Positions 1,421-60,396 of a DNA stretch of 64,000 nt are shown here, in pieces. Made by a program: the position numbers and the translations under genes. The DNA lies in assembly GCA_038087875.1 (NCBI GenBank), contig CM075990.1:15316001-15380000 (forward strand), written 5' to 3'. The notes under the pieces were generated by a model. It made no database searches. It had not been told where the DNA came from and worked only from the letters and a program-made list of their open reading frames with translations. Positions within the stretch are counted from its first letter, which is position 1. The number at the start of each line of letters is the position of its first letter. The DNA is from Malacoraja senta (Eukaryota).

Positions 1421-2994
1421 ATGTGCAGAAATATATATATTTCAGTTTGAATTTATGTGCATTTGTAGGAAGACATAATTATCTTTCTTTCATTGGAAAG
1501 CTTTAGTGATGAATCATGACAATTCATGTTCCATGTCCAACCCCAGATGAGGTTGCCTTGAGAATTTACATAGTAGATTTAAATTTGGACTTGCAAAGCT
1601 AAATTAAATAAATGGAGTATTAAAAATCTTTGTGGTATGAAAGATCACAAGGAGACATGATCCAAGTAGTGAAATTGATGGATAATTACAAATCTAAATG
1701 TTATTTGATACAAACTATTGTCAAACGGAAGGACAGAAGTGCTTAGTTACCAAGCTTTAAGTGAGAGTAGAATTGAGTTTTAATGCCTGCAATATAATAC
1801 AGACATTAGAAGATTTGAAGGCATGAAGTTCAGTCCTTTGAACGGACATAAATATTATTCCCTATCTCATCTGGCTCAGGGTGTTTCATCTATAATTTGA
1901 TTGGAATGGTTTAATTAGGTTGTAATGTTATATTATCATGTTGGATTGCTGCAACATTACCTTTTGATGGTCTGATTTTGTGAGGGTTAGGTAAGAAAGC
2001 GGGAAGGTGATCAGTTACTGTATGAAGATTCATTCAATGATGATTCATTGCCCCCTGAGTCCAGGGCATCCTCTGCAATCTGTTGCATTTCCAAAAAATA
2101 CAAATGAAAAGATACCTGTGCTTTCAATGGTTTGATTTGAAAACATTTCATTTTCAAAGCCTCGCAAATTTCACTACATTAATCTGCTTTTATTCCATGT
2201 AATATCTATCTGATATACTATTTCACTGTACTGTTGGTTATTTTTATAGGATTGAAAGAGTTGGCAGGACAGACTGATTAGGCTATCGAGTTATTTCAAT
2301 CTGTAGAGAAAAATGTAGTGCCTTGTACCGTTCTGGGCTTAAGATAAGGATAGGTGGGTGTTGAGCCAGTTGTCATTATCTCCAGCCAGCCCAACATAAA
2401 ACTGATACATTTCAATCTGTGGGAAGTATCTACATTTAGCTCGCTAGTTTCAAATTAATGAATAAATTATTCATACATCTGTTCGGAATTGTAAAAACGT
2501 CTTGGGAAATGTGTACAAGCTGTACAAGCCTTCCACTTGTATACTAGCAATACTAGGCAATTTCATGAAAATCTTGGCACAATAACACCATGTAAAATGA
2601 AAGCTGCTGGGACCGGTCCCAATACTCTGCCAAACCGGTCAAGGATAAATAGTGCAGAGTACTATGGAAGATATAAAATTATTGCTTGAGTTACTGTTTG
2701 GGATGGAAGAAAGATACTTTGCTAAATGTTTCCTTATGGCAAAACTAATGGAGGAAAGAGCTTGATGGGTCTAGGAATATTTCATACCACGATTGTGGTT
2801 TCTCACGGCATGCAGAGCAAACAAAAAAGAACATTACAGATATTTTGAGATACATTTTAATATTTTTATTGCGGAACCACAAGGAGCAGTAGTGAAGTGG
2901 GAAATCTTGGAAAATGAACTCTTTGATCACGGGTACATGTAGAAATGGAAGGGTATAGATCATGTACAGGCTGTTTGGGATTAGTTTAATGGAG

Positions 2995-3190
2995 ACACAA
3001 GGAACTGCTTGTTGCTGGAATCTGGCGTACCACACAAAATGCTGAATTAACTCGACAGATCAGGCAGCATCTCTGAAGATAGACACAAAAACCTGGAGTA
3101 AGTCAGTGGGTCAGGCAGGATCTCTGGAGAAAAGGAATAGGTATAGTCGAGGCCCTTCTTCAGACTGACAGTCAGGGGCACCTCTGGAGA
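2995..3190 (-). mobile_element. Penelope-derived pLTR fragments (two tandem, degenerate)
   Basis: ggaactgc...gctgg, gatagacacaaaa...ggcaggatctctggaga...cccttcttcagactga. Confidence 0.7.
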
Positions 3191-4066
3191 TCAGTTTACC
3201 TTGGCATCAAATGCAAACACAGACGTTGTGGGCCGAACGGTCCATTCCTGTGCTGTACAGTTTTATATTCTATACCACAGGTAGGTAGTTACTGTAGCTA
3301 CAAATTATGGCAATGAGGTGATTATGCAATTCTCCTATCAATCCAACCCACTCATCACAGTGAGGTAAGTAGCTGAGATTAACTTAATGTGTATAATTGC
3401 ACTCACTGATTCTTCAATAGACTGTTGACTGAATGACAACTGGGAATGCCTGAAATACTCAGCAGGTCAGGCAGCTTTTCTGGAGTCAGGAATAAAGTGA
3501 ACAATTCAAAGATCTCTCATCATCAGAACTGATAAAGGTCATCAAGCTGAAACATTAACTCTGTCTCTTCTTTCCACCCAGAGCTCTTGACCTGAACACT
3601 TACAGCATTTTGTGCTTTTTATTTCAGATTTCCAGCATCTGCAATATTTTTTGTCAATTGAGCAACTTGGCTCATGAATCGCAGGTTCCCATCCCAAACT
3701 CATGGGAGGACACAATCCTGGCAAAGGAATATACCGCTGAATTATCAACACATCATTTCTGTTGCACTCAATTAATGAAAATGTTGTTTGATACCCTTTG
3801 TGCCGCCAACAATCCTTCATTCACACAACAGTTGCTCCTGAAGAGGGTATTAATATTTAAACAGGGACTGGCTGAGCAAGACGTTTTGAATACTGTTGCT
3901 TCAACGTTAATAAAATGGGAATCATTTTATATCCTCAATTTCATTTTTTTTTTTTAAAGCACATCATCTCTCACTTGAATTCTCAGCCCTCAAAATGGCC
4001 ATAAACTTCATGCATATGGACAGAGCTAACTTTACAAAACATGACTTGATTATTAATGCAGAGTTG

Positions 4067-4372
4067 TGGGCCTGTCCCACTGTACGAGTTCACCCAAGAG
4101 CTCTCCCGAGTAAAAAAAACAAACAAACTCGTGGTAAGCACGTAGAATGTACGTCGGAGCTCGGGACGTTTCTTAGCGGCTCGTAACGCTAACGGCAGGT
4201 ACTCAGGAAACGCAGTAAGCTCGGAATGACTCGTGAAGATTTTTCAACACGTTGAAAAATGTCCACGAGAGCCCCGAGTACCTACGAGCGGCTATTACCG
4301 TAATTCTCTGAGTTCGAATTAGGGGAAACTCGGGAGAACTCTTGAATTAGCTCGTACAGTGGGACAGGCCCA
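4067..4372. mobile_element. PIF/Harbinger MITE
   Basis: TIR tgggcctgtcccactgtacgag / ctcgtacagtgggacaggccca, with flanks ttg and tta. Confidence 0.88.
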
Positions 4373-4539
4373 TTAGTCGCAACATATTTAACGCACATAT
4401 CGGAAACTATCAAAGCAAATATTTTCAATCCTAGCACCATTGCAATGGTTGAATGGTGGGGAAGAAATCCTTCCACGACCAAATATTTAAGGCGCAAGGC
4501 TTGCCTTATTGTACGCAAGTTCTAATCACAGAGCTGTTA

Positions 4540-4856
4540 AGGGCCTGTCCCACTGTACGAGCTAATTCAAAAGTTCTCCTGAGTTTCCCCTGATTCGAAC
4601 TTGGAGAATTACGGTAATAGCCGCTCGTAGGTACTCGGGGCTCTCGTGGACATTTTTCAACATGTTGAAAAAACTTCACGAGTCTTCACGAGCTTACCGC
4701 GTTTCCCGAGTACCTGCCGTTAGCGTTACGAGCCGCTAAGAGACGTCCCCGAGCTCCGACGTACCCGCTACGTACATTCTACGTACTTACCACGAGTCTG
4801 ATTTTTTTTAAACTCGGGAGAGCTCTTGGGTGAACTCGTACAGTGGGACAGGCCCT
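4540..4856. mobile_element. PIF/Harbinger MITE, same family, inverted relative to 4067-4372
   Basis: TIR agggcctgtcccactgtacgag. TTA TSD at 4537-4539 and 4857-4859. Confidence 0.9.
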
Positions 4857-4949
4857 TTACTTGTGAGGAGTCTTGTACATGAGCATTCAGTTAAGGGACA
4901 ATAGCCTGCTAATTTTCGCTGTTTTAAACCAGCTTACGCGAAAGAGACT

Positions 4950-5070
4950 TTATTGTCCTGATGCAGGGTTTGATTTGAAACGTCGACTATTGCTTCCCCC
5001 ACCACAGATGCTTGCCGACCTACCGAGTTCATCCAGCAGATTCAGATTCCAGCAGTCTCCTGTGTCTCTG
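4950..5070 (+). mobile_element. Older Penelope pLTR fragment with degenerate hammerhead
   Basis: attgtc-ctgatgca-gggt..tttgaaacgtc-gactat followed by cacagatgcttgccgacctaccgagttcatccagc. Confidence 0.65.
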
Positions 5071-5174
5071 GCCTCTACTGATTCCGTTAGCAAAATTCAT
5101 CTCATCAGTCCCAACCTATAAAACTCCACCGGTTTCTGTGAAACCAGCTCCTAAACACACATCTGAAAGAAAAA

Positions 5175-5372
5175 TGTTTAAGGAGGAACTGCAGATGCTG
5201 GAAAATCGAAGGTAGATAAAAATGCTGGAGAAACTCAGCGGGTGTGGCAGCATCTATGGAGCGAAGGAAACTGGCAACGTTTTGGGTCGAGACCCGAAAC
5301 TTTGCCTATTTCCTTTGCTCCATAGATGCTGCCTCACCCGCTGAGTTTCTCCAGCATTTTTGTCTACCTTCT
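5175..5372. mobile_element. Penelope-derived palindrome
   Basis: aggaactgcagatgctgg...ctcagcgggtg...catctatggagcgaagg and its inverted copy. Confidence 0.8.
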
Positions 5373-6786
5373 GAAAGAAATGTTGTATTTTTGTTCTCCT
5401 GGTGAAATATCTGCTCCTTTCCACATGTAATTTTATTTTTGCCTTTTTTCTTACTCAGCCATCAATTTCCTGCAGCTCCAGAAAATCTGTGGAGTAAAGC
5501 GGAGGGAAAAACAGAACTCCATTTCTCTCAGTTTATCGGCAAACATATAATACTTACGGCAGTGATTAATGGTGACAAGCTAAAAAGTTCCATACCACAC
5601 TATACCATGCTGGGAAAAACGTGAACTTCATATTTTTGGCACAAGTGTGTTCAAAGTTATGGTGTGTCAGAACTTTTTTCATTATTTTCAGAGTTTTTCC
5701 AAAGAGGAATGATACAATACTCACATGTCATAATGATTAGCTTGGAATGACCTCGATATAGTTTAGACATCTGAGTTCTATTCTAGTGTTACCAACATGT
5801 TTTTAGTTGTGCCAAAAGTTTGAGCAGGTCGGTATTTCCTTTCGAACATCAAAATGAAGACATTTATCATGGAGATTTATCATGGGACAGACATCCAGAT
5901 GGTCTGGGTATTTTAGCTGCAGCTCTGGCATGGGTCTGATTGGACTCATGTCATTGCCTAGTTAGAATCTAATATATCAGCTATTCCAGGGAAGTGCTTG
6001 ACTTTCTTTGAGTAATGTAGAAATATTAATGTCCTGGCAGATGTGAAATAGCTTGTCAGTTTAAAGGAAAACCAAGCCATACCCAATTACCCTTAATTAT
6101 GTTATAATTAGAGTATGATTTGTGTTATAAAAATTGCTGGCTCTGAGAAATATTTATCCCAATAAATCAAATTTAATATATATTAAAATGGAAAAACCCT
6201 TGTAATGCAATGTATATTGATAAAAAGAGGGGAGAGAAGATGCAAAATATCATATCTAACGTTCAGAGAGAAAGCAATAATCTCTCTGATTGTGATAATT
6301 ATGTTGTCAACTGGAAATTAAATTTTGTTAATTAGTGTTAAACAACATGTATGGTTATGGCTGTCATGGAATTTGTACATTCCAGTTTTGAACGAACGGT
6401 ACATCATCTCTCATCATTCTAATAAATAAGGACAACTCATTTCTATTTCAGGATTTGATTGGGTGATCACTTTTGACATGTAATGTCACTACAAGATGAT
6501 ACAGTTCACCGAATCCAATTTTAACTGTTGATTTCAGGATATTATGATTTCATTCTGTAACATCCTTCATTTTATTCGGAACTAGTGACTAAAATAGTTT
6601 AAAAGGTAATGGTTAACCTTTGTGCTGGCACCGACTTTCACCATTACAAAGAAAAATGTTTATTTAATAAGATTCCAAGAATAATTCAAAGATAATGGCT
6701 ACCTTTTGCCTTTCTGAAGGCAAGTATCTTCAGAGCGACTTATAAAATAAATCTGTTCCAGGAACATAAGTTGAGGATAGGTTTAA

Positions 6787-12077: not shown

Positions 12078-12642
12078 TGAATTTCTAGAACTTTGCAATG
12101 TCAAAATTAGCTACCGTGATTGGATGTGTACTAGTAGGAGTAGTGTATTGGGTACATTTTATGATGCATATTTGGTTTGTTGCCTGTTAATTTGGCCTTT
12201 TATGAACTTGGTAAGTTGATAGTTAATTTGGTCTTATGTTGATACCACAACTCTAGGCCCTTGTGTTCATTAGGGAGAGTGATGATGTTATAATCAGACT
12301 TACCCAATCACTGGAACAAACGTTCTATTTAAATGAGTATTTTGCCTCAGGAGGAAGAGTGGTCTCAGATTTCCTGATGCAAATTTGCAACAAAAACCCC
12401 CCATCTCCCATTGGTTAAATAAATTAAGGCCATATTGTACATATTCCAGTGAGTTAAAACTGAAAACTGAAAATGCGCAGATGAGTGAGGGAGTCCAAGA
12501 CAAACTGTGGCTCTGGGTCTGATTCCAGAGTATCAGAGATTCAAACAAAATGATTCAAATGATTGGGTCAACCACTTCTCGATGCAGAGTTCTCAGTAAG
12601 GCCAAGAGAATTTTGTGCAGATAAGGATAAAACTTTCTGGAA

Positions 12643-12727
12643 TAGACACTAAAAACTGGAGTAACTCAGCGGGACAGGCAGCATCTCTGGAGAGAAGGAA
12701 TGGGTGACGTTTCGGGTCGAGGCCCTT
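12643..12727 (-). mobile_element. Penelope pLTR fragment
   Basis: tagacac...ctcagcgggacaggcagcatctctggagagaaggaatgggtgacgtttcgggtcgaggccc. Confidence 0.8.
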
Positions 12728-12877
12728 TGTTCAAAACTTTCTGGGAGTAAATTCTACGGAGAAAGAGAACATTTCCAGAAATTTAGCAAAAGTAAATAGT
12801 AATCACCTGGATTATCTCTAAATGCAACCTTGATATTTTGATATTTGTGGAATATATGCAAACATAGAAGAATGATC

Positions 12878-13620
12878 TTCCATTGCCAGAGTGAGGCCAC
12901 GCGCAAACAACACCTCTTATTCTGCTTCAGTAGTTTACAACCCAATGGTATGAACATTGAATTCTCCAATTTTAGGTAACTAAAGTAGAAACAATACCCC
13001 CCCCCCACTCTTCTCTGTGCCCAACTAGATGGACATCCAGATCTCCCACAATCCCTTCCCGCTTTCCTCTTCCGGCCCCTTCCACCTATATTCCTACGAC
13101 TGCACTTCACGCCTCTTCTCTACTTATCGCACAGGCTTTGGCCTTTTCATCCATGCCCTTTGTCCAACCATCTTCCAATTCAACCCCCTTTCCGCCAGGA
13201 GATAAGTTTAAGGTGAGGGCGGAAAGATTTAATAGGAACTTTTACACACACACAGGGAGCATGGAGCAAGCTGCCAGAGGAGGTGGTTGAGGCAGGTACT
13301 ATTGCAATGTTTAAGAAACATTTAGACAGGTAAATGGATAGGACAGGTTTAGAGGGATATGGGCCAAACACTGACAAGTGGGACTAGTATAGATGGGATA
13401 TTTTGGTCAATGTGGGCAAGCTGGGCCGAAGGGCCTGTTTCCACGCTGTATGACTCTATGGCCTGTATCCACCTATCACTTGTCTGGCTTTTTCCTGCCT
13501 CCACATCACTTCCAGCTTCCCCCCACCCTCTATAATCAATCTGAAGAAGTGTCCTGACCCAAAACATTGCCTATTCATGTCTTCCAGAGATTGTGCCTGA
13601 CCCGCTGAGATATTATAGAA
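12878..13620 (+). mobile_element. Penelope-like element 3' end (GIY-YIG C-terminus, UTR, degenerate hammerhead), interrupted by a CR1 fragment at about 13200-13460
   Basis: 12878-12979 translates FHCQSEATRKQHLLFCFSSLQPNGMNIEFSNFR*. ctgaagaagtgtcctgacccaaaacattg at 13541. Confidence 0.8.
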
Positions 13621-13876
13621 CTTTTGGGGGGGGGGGGGGGGGGGTTTCCTCCAAGAATTAATTTCCCTTTTTTGAAATATCCCATCTCCATCTCCTGAAA
13701 CATTTTTGTTGATTTCCTTCCAATATGAAAGAAATGGCTTTTGCTATTCCTTCTGGAGACCAAAAGGAATTTCTGTATTGAATCTCAGAGGGCTGAGGGA
13801 GGTTTAGTACACTCTGTCCAAAAAGTGATGGAACAACAGCGTGTGGCCAACAAGACGCAAAAGAGGACCATTGCTT

Positions 13877-16159: not shown

Positions 16160-16297
16160 TCGAAGGTAGACACAAAATGCTGGAGTAACTCAGCGGGACA
16201 GGCAGCATCTCTGGAGAGAAGGAATGGATGACGTTTCGGGTCGAGACCCTTCTTCAGACTCATGGGTGACATTTCGGGTCGAGACCCTTCTTCAGAC
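16160..16297 (-). mobile_element. Penelope pLTR fragment with two tandem hammerhead cores
   Basis: gacgtttcgggtcgagacccttcttcag at 16230-16257 and a second copy at about 16268-16295. Confidence 0.85.
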
Positions 16298-17522: not shown

Positions 17523-17618
17523 GAGGTAGACACAAAAAGCTGGAGTAACTCAGCGGGACAGGCAGCATCTCTGGAGAGAAGGAATGTGTGACGTTTCGGG
17601 TCGAGACCCTTCTTCAGA
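17523..17618 (-). mobile_element. Penelope pLTR fragment with intact hammerhead core
   Basis: gacgtttcgggtcgagacccttcttcag at 17590-17617. Confidence 0.85.
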
Positions 17619-26249: not shown

Positions 26250-26575
26250 ACACTGCAGATGCTGGAATCTTGAGCGAAAAAAACACCAATGAGTATCAGA
26301 GCAACTCAGCGAGTCAGGCAGCATCTGTGGAAGGAATGGATAGGTTGAAGAAGGGTCCCAAACAGACAAGTTGTCTATCCATTCCCTCCACAGATGCTGC
26401 CTGACTGCTAAGTTACTCCAGCATTTTGTGTGTTTGATCATGTTGTATGGATAGGAAAGTTTTAGAGGGATATGGGCATCTTGCAGGCAGGTTGGACTAG
26501 TGTTGATGGGGCATCTTGGTCAGCATGGGCAAGTTAGTCCAAGTGCCTGTTTCTGTTCTGTATGACTCTATGACT
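26250..26575. mobile_element. Penelope-derived palindrome followed by a CR1 3' end
   Basis: actgcagatgctgg...ggcagcatctgtgg / ccacagatgctgcc. Then ggataggaaagttttagagggatatggg...tatgactctatgact. Confidence 0.75.
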
Positions 26576-28704: not shown

Positions 28705-29490
28705 GAACATAAAACAATCCAGCACAGGAACAGGCCCTTCAGCCCACAATGTCCATGCTAATTAAACTAAGGTGTAGAAATGAAGTACAGAATCTGGTTT
28801 ATGTCAAAGATAGACACAAAATGCTGGAGTAACTCAGCGGATCAAGCAGCATCTCTGGAGCAAATATATGGGTGACGTTTCGGATCAAAACCCTACAGAA
28901 GGGTCTTGACCCTAAACACCACCGTCCTTTTACTCAAGAGAGGCTGACTGACCTGCCGAGTTACTCCAGCACTTTCTATGTCTCTCTAATTTAAACTAAT
29001 CTCCTCTTCCTAAAGGGCCTGTCCCACTTGGCGATTTTTTTTGGCGACTGCCGGCATCATATCAGTGTGGCCAAAAGATTTTGAACATTTCAAAATCCAG
29101 CGGCAACAAAAAAATGTTGCGACACTTGAAAAAACACCGCGCGTCATACATCAACACGCCGCGACATGCTGCGTCACGCCACATCACGCCGCAAATTTTT
29201 CGGTGACCTGATACGTTAGTCAATGATGACGGCTGTCGGCGAAAAAAATCGCCAAGTGGGACAGGCCCATAACATGATCCATCGCACTTTATTCCCTGCA
29301 TATCCATGTACCTATCTGAAAGCCTCTTAAATGCCACTGTTGCACCTGCCCCACCACCGCCCCAGGCAGCGAATTCCAGGCACCCACCAGTGTCTGTAAA
29401 AAAAGACGCCCCTCCCACCAATAAACTTTTGACCCTCTCAAGTTAAAGCTACACCTTCTAATGCTTGACATTTCCACCTGGGAAAGAAGT
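28705..29490 (-). mobile_element. Old CR1 3' end carrying a Penelope palindrome (about 28770-28985) and a MITE
   Basis: cagcacaggaacaggcccttcagcccaca...aaactaatctc...atccatgtacctatctgaaagcctcttaaatg. Confidence 0.7.
29014..29269. mobile_element. PIF/Harbinger MITE
   Basis: TIR gggcctgtcccacttggcgatttttt. TAA TSD at 29011-29013 and 29270-29272. Confidence 0.9.
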
Positions 29491-30704: not shown

Positions 30705-31170
30705 AACATATCCACCTATTACTTGCCTAGATTTGCCCTGCCCCTCCTCTCTTCCAGCTCTCTCCCCCCCCCCCACCCCACCCCACCCCCCATCACAATC
30801 AGTGCGGAGAGGTCCCGAAAAACAACATTGTCCTATTAATGCTCTCGAGAGATACTGCCTGACCCAATGAGTTTCCCCAGCACTTTGCATCTTTTTTTTG
30901 TAAACCAGCATCTGCAGTTCCTTACAAATGCTGTTTGCTTCAAAGAGAAACACGAAATGCTGGAGTAACTCAGCGGGACAGACAGCATGTCTGGATAGAA
31001 GGAATGGATGATGTTTCGGGTCGAGATCCTTCTTCAGACTGAAGAAAGGTCTCGACCCGAAACTTCACCCATTCCATCTATCCAGAGAACCTGTCTGTCC
31101 CGCTGAGTTACTCCAGCATTTTGTGTCTATCTTCGGTGCAAACCAGCATCTGCAGTTCCTTCCTACACAA
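30705..31170. mobile_element. Penelope pLTR fragment plus palindrome (about 30948-31170)
   Basis: Centre cttcagactgaagaaaggtctcgacccgaaac, with inverted arms. Confidence 0.85.
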
Positions 31171-34009: not shown

Positions 34010-34105
34010 AAAGAAGGGTCTCGACCCGAAACGAGTCTGAAGAAGGGTCTCGTCCCAAAACGTCAACTATTCCTTCGCTCCATAGATGCTGCCTCATCCG
34101 CTGGA
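34010..34105 (+). mobile_element. Penelope pLTR fragment with tandem hammerhead-like cores
   Basis: agaagggtctcgacccgaaacg agtctgaagaagggtctcgtcccaaaacgtc. Confidence 0.8.
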
Positions 34106-34793: not shown

Positions 34794-35756
34794 TTGATAT
34801 TAGAGTAGCTCAGTTGGGACAGGCAACATCTCTGGAGAGAAGGAATGGGTGGCAAAGGGTCTCGATCCAAAATGTCACCCATTCCTTCTACCCAGAGATG
34901 CTGCCTTTCCCACTGAGTTACTCCTTTGTTTTTCTCCTTTTGTACCCAGCTCATGATCTTTTGAGGATGAATGGGAAGATGAATAAACTGCGCAAAGCTT
35001 GATATTTAATCATCTACTATGGACCTGAACAAGACTTGGTATCTATTTATTGCGCTAGTGGCCTGAGATTGAGCCAAGGCATTAAGGATAAATGTCAATG
35101 ACCATTTTTGAGCAGACTACTTTGATATTCCTTCTCTGTTCAGGAACCATCCAAGACCCCAATCAGGCTTAGACAATAGACAATAGATGCAGGAGTAGGC
35201 CATTCGGCCCTTCGAGCCAGCACCGCTAATGATAATGATACCCATCTAAAGCTCCAAAAGTGAATTGAGGTGGTTTCTTCCACAGTTTGCACTTGCTCCC
35301 TTCTCTGTGGGTTGGCCACTTGAATCTGATTGAGGATTGTGTAGAATTATGGCTAGTGTTAGTACTTAAATACTGCTTGGCATTACTTTGGTTCGTGAAT
35401 GCACTGGATGTGGAGTTGACTGGTGAGGCCAGCGTACAATGGCCATATTTGGTTCCTTTTGTACAGTACAAAGTGCCGGAGGAACTCCAACAGCATCTGT
35501 GATGGGAATGGACCGACAGATGTTTCGAGCCTGGTCCTTTCTTCAGAAGTTCCTCCAAGACCTTGTAGATTCCAGCACCTGCAGTTCCTTGTGTCTCTGG
35601 TTCCTTCAGGAAAGGTTCAGAGAAGAGGAATCAACACCTTGTGGGCCTGATGATGGAAACGGTCTCATGGTTCTGCAAAGCAGGGATTTCCTGGATTGAT
35701 GATAAGGGATGTTTAATAACCAATGGTTTATTTGTGATGAGAAGTGAGAGGGGGAG

Positions 35757-52401: not shown

Positions 52402-52624
52402 GTGTAGGAAGGAACTGCAGATGCTGGTTTAAACCGAAGATAGACACAAAAAGCTGGAGTAACTCAGCGGGACAGGCAGCATCTCTGGAGAGAAGGAATG
52501 GGTGACGTTTCGGGTCGAGACCCTTCTTCAGACCCAGACCATCCTCAACCCCGAAACGTCACCCATTTCTTCTCTCCAGAGATGCTGCCTGTCCCGCTGA
52601 GTTACTCCAGCTTTTTGTGTCTAT
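52402..52624. mobile_element. Penelope-derived palindrome, consensus-like
   Basis: gtgtaggaaggaactgcagatgctgg...gatagacac...cttcag, then cccgaaacgtcaccc...gtgtctat. Confidence 0.9.
52499..52536 (-). ncRNA. Candidate minimal type-I hammerhead ribozyme
   Basis: Minus strand reads UGGGU-CUGAAGA-A-GGGUC-UC-GACCC-GAAAC-GUC^ACCCA. It has both core boxes, a stem II, a palindromic loopless stem III (ACGU) and a 5-bp stem I. Confidence 0.7.
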
Positions 52625-54480: not shown

Positions 54481-54667
54481 GCAGAGTTCAGGATTGGTGT
54501 GAATGGGTGTTTGGAAGGGCCGAAGGGGCTATATCTGTGCTGTTTCACCCAATGAATCTCGATGGTTCTAGTTCTAGTGCTGCTATCTTGCGTTCAGATA
54601 TGGGTGAGAGTTGGCTACAGCCTTCTAGACCACCTCAATTTTTTCAATGCCTGTCCCTCTAATTGTT

Positions 54668-55122
54668 TAACTCAGCGGGACAGGCAGCATCCCTGGAGAG
54701 AAGGAATGAGTGACGTTTCGGGTCGAGACCCTTCTTCCGACTGATGTCAGGGGAGTGGTCGGTACAGAGATAAAAATGTAGTCAGAGTGAGGCCCAGCGC
54801 AAATTGGAGGAACAGGACCTCATATTTCGCTCGGGTAGCTTACACCCCAGCAGTATGAACATTGACTTCACTAACTTCAAGTAGCCCTTGCTCTCCCCTC
54901 TCTCTCCATCCCCTCCCGCATCCCAGTTCTCTGACCAGTCTTACTGTCTCCGACTACATTCTATCTCTGTACCGCCCACTCCCCTGACATCAGTCTGAAG
55001 AATGGTCTCGACCCGAAACGTCACCCATTCCTTCTCTCCAGAGGTGCTGCCTGTCCCACTGAGTTGCTCCAGCATTTTGTGTCTATCTTCGATTTAAACC
55101 AGCATCTGCAGTTTTTTTCCTA
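54668..55122 (+). mobile_element. Penelope-like element 3' end with inverted partial pLTR
   Basis: 54783-54884 translates QSEAQRKLEEQDLIFRSGSLHPSSMNIDFTNFK* (GIY-YIG C-terminus). Hammerhead core at 54995-55022. 54668-54783 is the reverse complement of about 54952-55065. Confidence 0.88.
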
Positions 55123-55571
55123 CTCCTCTCATAGTTTCTTTCTATATCCAGTGAAAACAGTCAGGTTCTGCGTAATTAATTTAAATTTCAACACAGTGGA
55201 TTGGTACTATGGATTGGAGCTGGATACCGGAATGCACTTTGTATTTTAGTGTTCAAAGTTTAAAGGCTTCAGAGATAGATTCCACTGCAACCGTGCAGAT
55301 GGAAGCCAAATATATGCTGAGGGAAATGTTCTAACTCTGTCGCACACTTGCCCGACCATTAGATTTTATCTGCAGGCGCTGTTCCTTGAGATAAGCTTAT
55401 GTAAAGGCTTTGTGTCTTTCTACAGTCCATGGTGACAGGCCGGCTAATTGAAGTGCTTAGTGTGTCAGACAGAACAACTTTATTCCCAGTTTGGCCATCC
55501 AGCGATATAATCTGTTCTGTGAGGGTGATTTCCACCTATGGAGCAGCCAAACACTTTACCACTGCAATAAA

Positions 55572-55794: not shown

Positions 55795-56600
55795 AAGTTA
55801 TGAGAAGAAGGCAGGAGAATGGGGTTCGGAGGGAGAGGTAGATCAGCCATGATTGAATGGTGCAGTAGACTTGATGGGCCGAATGGCTTAATTCTGCTCC
55901 TATCACTTATGATGATGAACTTATGAATAATGTGGAAGCTTCTTAGATGGTGCAGAGGAGGTTTATCGGAATGCTGCATGGATTAGAGGGTTTCTGCTGC
56001 AGGGAGAAGTTGGATAGACGTGGATTGTTTTCTCTGGAACGCGAGAGGTTGAGGGGAGACTTGATAGAAGTACATGAAATGATGAGAGGCATGAATAGGA
56101 TAGATATTCAGAACCTTTGTCCCGGGGTGGAGATGTCGAACACCGGAGAGCTTGGCCTTAAGGCGAGAGGTAGACAATATAATGGAGAGTAGACAAAAGT
56201 GTTGGAGAAACTCAGCGGGTGAGGCAGCATCTATGGAGCGAAGGAAATAGGTGACGTTTCGGGTCGAGGCCCTTCTTCAGTCTGAAGGAGGGTCTCGACC
56301 CGAAACGTCACCTATTTCCTTCGCTCCATAGATGCTGCCTCACCCGCTGAGTTTCTCCAGCATTTTTGCCTACCTTCGATTTTTCCAGCACCTGCAGTTC
56401 TTTCTTAAACAATATAATGGAGAAGTGAGGGGCAAGGTTTTCTCACACCGAGATTAATGGAGGGGCTGTAACGCATTGCCAGGGGTGGTGGTGGAGGCAG
56501 ATACAAGAGTGGCTTTTAAGAAGCTTTAAGTTAGGCACATGGATTTGCAGGTAATGGAGCGATATGGACCACGTGCAGGCAGATGAAATCAGTTCAGCTT
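55795..56600 (+). mobile_element. CR1 fragments
   Basis: VQRRFIGML...GLFSLERERLRGDLIEV, plus 3' UTRs. Confidence 0.85.
56189..56408. mobile_element. Penelope palindrome with 15-bp TSD
   Basis: TSD acaatataatggaga at 56174-56188 and 56409-56423. Arms of about 92 bp meet at cttcag-t-ctgaag. Confidence 0.92.
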
Positions 56601-60296: not shown

Positions 60297-60396
60297 CAGT
60301 CTGAAGAAGGGTTTCGGCCCGAAACGTTGCCTCTTTCCTTCGCTCCATAGATGCTGCCGCACCCGCTGAGTTCCTCCAGCAATTGTGTCTACCTTC
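60297..60396 (+). mobile_element. Penelope pLTR fragment with hammerhead core
   Basis: ctgaagaagggtttcggcccgaaacgtt at 60301-60328. Confidence 0.85.

Follow-up and report, generated by a model that had tools for sequence, protein, structure and literature searches.

Truncated insertions of a Penelope-like element, likely of the Neptune clade, and their predicted hammerhead motif in Malacoraja senta

Introduction

The recurrence of a ~100-bp unit with a hammerhead-like core along 64,000 nucleotides of Malacoraja senta DNA (contig CM075990.1; this whole stretch is the window below) has led us to wonder what the copy around position 54668 represents, which lies beside a peptide that a sequence-only reading had assigned to the GIY-YIG endonuclease of Penelope-like elements (PLEs). 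That reading saw in the unit an amplified ribozyme-bearing pLTR. The unit is indeed a pLTR, but its dispersed copies are mostly decaying stubs and form no maintained set of ribozymes. It is very probable that the repeats are truncated insertions of an EN+ PLE, likely of the Neptune clade, with a predicted minimal type-I hammerhead in its pLTR, the motif being likely inactive in most of the scattered copies. PLE hammerheads in pLTRs, inverted pLTRs and tails are already published (PMC4209133, PMC8557442, PMC3846280); the identification is therefore ordinary, and the initial observation is confirmed in kind while its importance had been overstated.

Results

In kind, the locus is confirmed as a single PLE insertion, in which two head-to-head pLTRs surround the last 33 codons of the ORF. 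Its parts are as follows.

54656..54668, no strand: left copy of a probable 13-bp target-site duplication, 11/13 identical to 55125-55137
54669..54787, minus strand: inverted pLTR arm, about -48 to +70 from hammerhead C3, without tail
54712..54739, minus strand: minimal hammerhead motif with the core change U4>G (CGGAAGA)
54783..54787, no strand: 5-nt microhomology CAGAG at the point of inversion, belonging both to the inverted arm and to the first bases of the direct arm
54783..54884, plus strand: last 33 codons and stop (54882-54884) of the PLE ORF, the GIY-YIG C-terminus
54885..54989, plus strand: pyrimidine-rich 3' UTR, as read from the sequence
54990..54995, plus strand: TCAGTC directly 5' of the core, the usual start of the family's short copies
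54995..55022, plus strand: minimal type-I hammerhead motif with G10.1>U, which breaks the closing pair of helix II; predicted cut 3' of 55022
55023..55088, plus strand: downstream body of the pLTR, as far as the first of the usual end points (~+92)
55089..55124, plus strand: ~35-nt tail, on this arm only, ending at +129
55125..55137, no strand: right copy of the probable target-site duplication, from the same 13-bp comparison

The two arms are 93% complementary between 54669-54775 and 54959-55065, and the left one extends with one gap to 54787, ending at +70 and not at the usual ~+92. The target-site duplication was spotted by eye after stricter scans had missed it, so that we hold it to be probable and not certain; its 11/13 identity was reached by 24 of 20,000 random right-hand windows. 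Both motifs depart from the conserved core or from the G10.1-C11.1 pair (U4>G at 54712, G10.1>U at 54995), and in the predicted transcript across the locus arm pairs with arm (-247 kcal/mol, z -19.7), which would bury both of them in a long hairpin. TCAGTC at 54990..54995 can be read as Inr-like, as acceptor-like or as a small palindrome. Over ~300-360 nt the locus is 84-92% identical to loci of its own subfamily. The peptide at 54783-54884 lies where it had been placed; the inverted repeat, both core mutations and the probable 13-bp duplication had been overlooked.

Several other copies in the window help to place the locus.

12633..13624, no strand: second ORF-bearing insertion, with an inverted arm at 12633-12727 and, after an intervening stretch, a degenerate motif at 13541
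16230..16257, minus strand: exact hammerhead motif, with a near-exact second copy in tandem at 16268-16295
17590..17617, minus strand: exact hammerhead motif
52504..52531, minus strand: exact hammerhead motif
60301..60328, plus strand: exact hammerhead motif in its young-subfamily form, with loop UUCG and GUU as the cut triplet
56177..56411, no strand: ORF-less head-to-head pLTR hairpin flanked by an 18-nt target duplication and tailed only on its right arm
5178..5382, no strand: ORF-less head-to-head pLTR hairpin flanked by a 13-nt target duplication and tailed only on its left arm

A unit had also been described downstream of the same peptide at 12878: the peptide is present there, although without LEE (GIY-YIG C-terminus at ~12884-12979, with a 3-residue deletion), but the motif is degenerate and lies ~560 nt away. 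The short pair at 16230/16268 is the one tandem in the window, the remainder being solo or inverted. pLTR copies that lie inside or right next to other pLTR copies, and so form short tandems of the motif, were seen at 16230-16295 and 34011-34094 of the window and, elsewhere, at L015:2064 and L107.

A pLTR profile built from 112 distinct genomic units gave 50 matches in the window against 0 in each of 10 shuffles, and BLAST with the locus's own arm gave 45; the more than 25 copies first counted were thus an undercount. Fifteen head-to-head pairs are found among the 50 matches, which leaves ~35 insertions in the window, or one per ~1.8 kb. A sample of 80 stretches of 10 kb, placed arbitrarily on large contigs, gave 380 profile matches over 798.6 kb (one per 2.1 kb), which occupy 4.5% of the sampled DNA, and by extrapolation the genome holds ~900,000 pLTR fragments. 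Within the first 399.4 kb of these stretches the ORF end lies upstream in only 14/175 profile matches, and a structural descriptor of the hammerhead matched 25 times (0 in 5 shuffles). The exact two-variant motif occurs 42,171 times genome-wide (control 0). It fits only 4 of the 50 window matches, so that the initial description of most copies as intact or degenerate holds only if the weight is put on the second word. No hammerhead family was reported by Rfam for the window at E<=1, which means that standard RNA annotation misses the motif copies. The miRNA-model matches that Rfam placed on pLTR hairpins were set aside, being below gathering scores; the hairpins concerned (5211-5369, 56210-56352, 34809-34917 and 26303-26414) could be mis-called miRNA precursors. 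Pfam returned nothing on 26 of the 78 long open frames of the window, and no host gene context was thus found among them.

The parent of these fragments was approached through the peptide of the locus, which gave 57,345 first-look candidates in the genome (G000, 1.94 Gb), 150 of them scored at 80-100% identity. Pfam found nothing on the isolated 35-residue peptide, but longer copies run into the GIY-YIG domain and the reverse transcriptase (RT), one of them (L006) exceeding the Pfam cut-off for GIY-YIG (23.9 vs 22.6 bits); the peptide is, as had been claimed, the C-terminus of a PLE GIY-YIG domain. A search with the RT led to long open frames, and in all 20 loci fetched, chosen for frame length, the young variant of the motif lies ~120 nt after the stop; several of these loci are partial tandems or inverted pairs. 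A full-length relative is found in L041, where an uninterrupted frame of 1224 residues (2904-6575, minus strand; 1212 from the first Met) lies between two pLTRs identical at 222/223 positions. Pfam recognised RVT_1 (E 1.3e-6) and GIY-YIG (E 1.6e-3) in L041 and the same two domains in L036 (E about 1e-6 and about 1e-3), in each case below the curated cut-offs. At least 99% identity to L041 over ~1.5 kb was found in 13/19 other fetched loci, so that this subfamily is young and recently mobile. The window locus, ~70% identical to L041 as compared with 84-92% to its own subfamily, belongs, judging from these identities, to an older subfamily.

Three traits by which EN+ PLEs are recognised were found. 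A single ORF with RT and C-terminal GIY-YIG is present in L041 and L036, and homologs have both domains; partial-tandem pseudo-LTRs, with a truncated ORF end and a pLTR upstream, occur in L038, L040 and L041; an inverted truncated copy with a one-sided tail of 30-40 bp is seen at the locus and in 29/34 head-to-head pairs bounded by target-site duplications (TSDs). A CX2-5CxxC linker (C1091-x4-C1096-x2-C1099 in L041) is invariant in 9/9 aligned proteins. This linker is common to Neptune and Nematis (PMC8557442), and the PLEs of the vertebrates sampled belong to Neptune or Poseidon (10.64898/2026.07.22.740005); the parent is likely a Neptune element. Among the homologs in the databases is a sea-urchin protein at 47% identity, and a search of PDB by sequence with L041 gave no match. 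Three further observations concern the element itself: its first in-frame ATG, at +161 from C3 of the 5' pLTR, sits in a splice-donor-like AAG/GTATG; a pLTR pyrimidine tract and CAG directly precede helix I, as if the hammerhead region were a ~160-nt exon; and five loci (L045, L046, L048, L049 and L050) are large head-to-head insertions with both arms running into RT/endonuclease, which repeats the geometry of the small hairpins at the kilobase scale.

The core of the motif reads CTGAAGA-A-GGGT-CTCG-ACCC-GAAACGTC; the version first noted was one base too long, and its pattern gave 1 match at 3 mismatches. The family has the conserved core, a base at 9.1, the G10.1-C11.1 pair and an NUH triplet, and in each of the subfamilies seen the majority state is the expected one at all core positions, at 9.1, at the G10.1-C11.1 pair and in the palindrome, loop 2 being variable. 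The loopless helix III with its ACGU palindrome (15.1-16.1), as first described, is present in the family and in most relatives. Four features were not built into the search of PMC4209133, namely families with compensatory changes, a base between 9 and 10.1, G10.1-C11.1 and a palindrome at 15.2-16.2; the family motif has all four, the compensatory changes being here across relatives.

These relatives come from 80 metagenome loci (L156-L235), metagenome-filed contigs which encode PLE relatives with hammerheads and are probably animal host DNA. They gave 22 sense and 6 antisense descriptor matches as compared with 0-3 in total per shuffle. From the 22 sense matches 13 were kept as distinct families, near-duplicates being dropped and one match without helix I retained. 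The descriptor requires helix II, whose variation among relatives is thus no independent support, and does not include helix I. Across the 13 relatives and the family, helix I shows 50 paired steps against a null mean of 16.3 and a maximum of 36 in 20,000 shuffles; with four genome rows added it scores 0.77 vs 0.18, slid controls reaching at most 0.17, and double changes are found at all four pairs. The covariation asked for is thus there for helix I. In the family helix I has 2 bp followed by an A.C mismatch, most relatives having 3-6 bp; in the young subfamily the cut site is GUU and helix II contains a U.G pair; folding of monomers did not give the hammerhead (z between -0.4 and 0.7). No compensatory helix II subfamily was found within the genome, the double changes at 10.2/11.2 among the 100 listed of 657 matches being mostly A.A. 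By sequence, then, the motif is the minimal type-I pLTR hammerhead that had been proposed, with the published feature set and a covarying helix I, and self-cutting is predicted.

The ends of the copies provide another source of evidence. When 478 copies were mapped, 195 of them began in the interval from -7 to +1 and only 4 at the cut site (+28), where there is no peak; this set includes motif-chosen loci, ~20 of them passengers of a DNA transposon described below, so that the start peak is inflated. In unselected sequence, 63/86 core-bearing copies lack the 3' UTR, a few UTR-bearing copies being in the wrong class. A target duplication ending at -12 to +3 was found in 26/139 non-inverted UTR-less copies, against 6, 5 and 2 in shifted windows; the starts so defined spread from -11 to +3, with the duplication abutting -2 to 0 in 11/26, and the 3' ends of these 26 solo copies fall at +86-96 or +120-132. 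Among head-to-head pairs, 35/124 have a target duplication of at least 10 nt (controls 2 and 1), the pair at 30921 of the window having been dropped from the 35 as its duplication is element sequence. The duplications vary from 10 to 20 nt, and the tail, which in L041 is the next 35 nt of the element body, is present on one arm only in 29/34 of the TSD-bounded pairs. Many inverted junctions are centred on the palindrome TCAG-T-CTGA. An extra G derived from a cap is indistinguishable from the native G at -2. The reading of the 5' start as a splice acceptor (pyrimidine tract and CAG) was discarded for copies with a target duplication directly at their start, as these carry no upstream exon. Among the matches listed for four assembled-contig sets from sequencing runs, three of them of other organisms, neither a start nor an end nor a canonical splice joint was seen.

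Once inserted, the copies decay. Over 169 unselected copies, divergence is 6.6% at the nine core positions outside CpG and 7.6% at 36 downstream positions, and G12 is lost in 29% through CpG loss. The core thus decays about as fast as its flanks, which suggests that selection on the motif acted on source elements and not on the stubs. Both motifs of the locus and most dispersed hammerheads are likely inactive.

Discussion

How did so many fragments come to share the same ends? It is tempting to propose that the element's protein nicks both DNA strands ~12-14 nt apart and that reverse transcription is primed at two internal sites of the pLTR RNA, ~+92 and +128 from C3; a single cDNA would leave a solo stub, and where two became linked through microhomology, a head-to-head pair like the locus would result. 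Since the inserts run through the cut site, the RNA would have been copied uncut, and we infer that the one-sided tails of 29/34 pairs fit priming from both strands on such RNA. The green anole PLE sets a precedent, with two-site internal priming, extension on both strands and dispensable ribozyme cleavage (PMC11167929). At the locus one cDNA of the pair would have extended ~210 nt past the motif into the ORF. This ORF-reaching cDNA must derive from a 3' pLTR or from a tandem transcript, so that run-off at an RNA 5' end cannot explain every copy. Within an active tandem transcript, helix III would have to be built through the ACGU palindrome between the hammerhead and a second copy of it, perhaps with the help of the protein; dimer cleavage was reportedly described by Lunse and colleagues in 2017 (cited in PMC6765202).

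As to the sharp 5' start, we suggest, with slightly less than even confidence, that transcription of the element starts right at the 5' edge of the hammerhead, with TCAGTC as initiator. The several hundred thousand short copies would then be strong-stop-like cDNAs, primed at two fixed sites of the leader, each serving one DNA strand, and extended until they ran off the RNA at its 5' end. The start of transcription of D. virilis Penelope likewise lies inside its pLTR (PMC2377424). The start could instead be an ordinary hot spot of 5' truncation or fold-back at the TCAG-T-CTGA palindrome, on which many inverted junctions are centred; palindromic junctions have been read as self-priming (PMC3846280), and TSD-defined starts do spread from -11 to +3. 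Yet non-inverted solo copies start there too, 11/26 with the duplication abutting -2 to 0, and a structure-stalled polymerase should, as we see it, stop 3' of the motif, which makes this account rather unlikely; for the short copies an RNA start at TCAGTC is what we favour over it, if with a confidence that itself stays just under even. Somewhat more doubtful still is the view that this lineage retains the motif as a hammerhead relic or as a signal at the DNA level, cleavage being lost even in active elements. It would agree with the 2-bp helix I, with the GUU cut site and U.G pair of the young subfamily, with inserts derived from uncut RNA and with the poor cutting of other minimal PLE hammerheads in vitro (PMC4209133). 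But D. virilis Penelope also has a 2-bp helix I (PMC4209133), the anole ribozyme cuts once protein is added (PMC11167929), and a core, base at 9.1, G10.1-C11.1 pair and palindrome that prevail in every subfamily seen while loop 2 varies speak against it.

Two other explanations make the short units families of their own. Self-propagation of a non-autonomous retrozyme- or SINE-like family, with its own transcription and active ribozymes, would account for the 63/86 copies without 3' UTR and for the target duplications of solo copies (26/139 vs 6, 5 and 2), and animal retrozymes have been derived from pLTRs (10.64898/2026.07.22.740005). We consider it improbable: the copies are dispersed or inverted with tandem arrays rare, the core decays with its flanks, solo copies share subfamily variants with ORF-bearing elements, and copies do not start at the cut site. 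Even less credible, and close to dismissed, is that the hairpins are MITEs of a DNA transposon. They do have long inverted repeats, but with unequal arms (one-sided tail), duplications of 10-20 nt and a spacer that is PLE ORF or absent, they lack the symmetric termini and the fixed short TSD of MITEs. One true TIR element did capture and spread a hairpin copy. This element of ~700 bp (ends GGGCCTGTCCCACT) carries a pLTR hairpin with a broken helix II, A.A at 10.2/11.2, at L129, L130, L134, L143, L146 and other loci, and related ends are seen in the window at 4067-4860 and 29015-29268. The A.A variant makes up most of the 100 listed among 657 matches, and 14 of the 16 copies examined share the flanks of the TIR element, and are thus its passengers. 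Truncated insertions of a PLE remain our reading of the bulk of the family.

The family has close parallels. The metazoan PLE hammerheads of Xena, Poseidon and Neptune (Cervera and de la Pena 2014, PMC4209133) have the same CUGANGA/GAAA core, extra base between 9 and 10.1 and G10.1-C11.1 pair, likewise a palindromic 15.2-16.2 without loop 3 and a location in pLTRs, and occur mostly solo or as opposite-strand pairs. Here, however, helix I has 2 bp and helix II 4 bp as compared with 4-5 and 7-8 in the Schistosoma families, and 42,171 exact copies contrast with ~4,000 in coelacanth and ~9,000 in Xenopus, which were obtained by a different search; the accessible text of PMC4209133 names no shark or ray. 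Neptune EN+ PLEs (Craig et al. 2021, PMC8557442) share the single ORF with RT, CX2-5CxxC linker and C-terminal GIY-YIG, as well as partial tandems, inverted 5'-truncated copies and a 30-40 bp tail at one end; unlike them, L041 has a long frame (1212 residues, counted from its first Met) that is rich in proline over ~170-490, in the N-terminal half. PAc, the green anole element (Frangieh et al. 2024, PMC11167929), uses the same kind of two internal start sites defining the tail, both-strand extension and uncut RNA template, but is of the Poseidon clade, and its ORF starts inside the hammerhead, whereas the first in-frame ATG is here ~160 nt downstream of C3. Non-LTR retrozymes (10.64898/2026.07.22.740005) are likewise non-coding, derived from pLTRs and equipped with a type-I hammerhead, but form tandem arrays with at least 2 complete ribozymes, whereas the window copies are dispersed solos or inverted pairs with decaying cores; the preprint samples one chondrichthyan. 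In a limited literature collection we found no paper on PLE hammerheads in sharks or rays, nor on PLE twin priming.

The scale of the family is useful in itself, with ~4.5% of the sampled DNA, 42,171 exact motifs and none of the window copies in the Rfam output. The copy ends constitute a large natural record of PLE integration, whose mechanism is still poorly understood. An RNA start at TCAGTC, if true, would account together for a helix I of 2 bp, for the tail on one side and for the hairpins; full-length copying would then depend on a template jump or on a tandem transcript. The young subfamily, with its intact frame, offers material to study whether a ribozyme with a 2-bp helix I cuts and where the RNA starts. 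Finally, the head-to-head pairs, if transcribed, would yield long double-stranded RNA, which may matter for editing or silencing.
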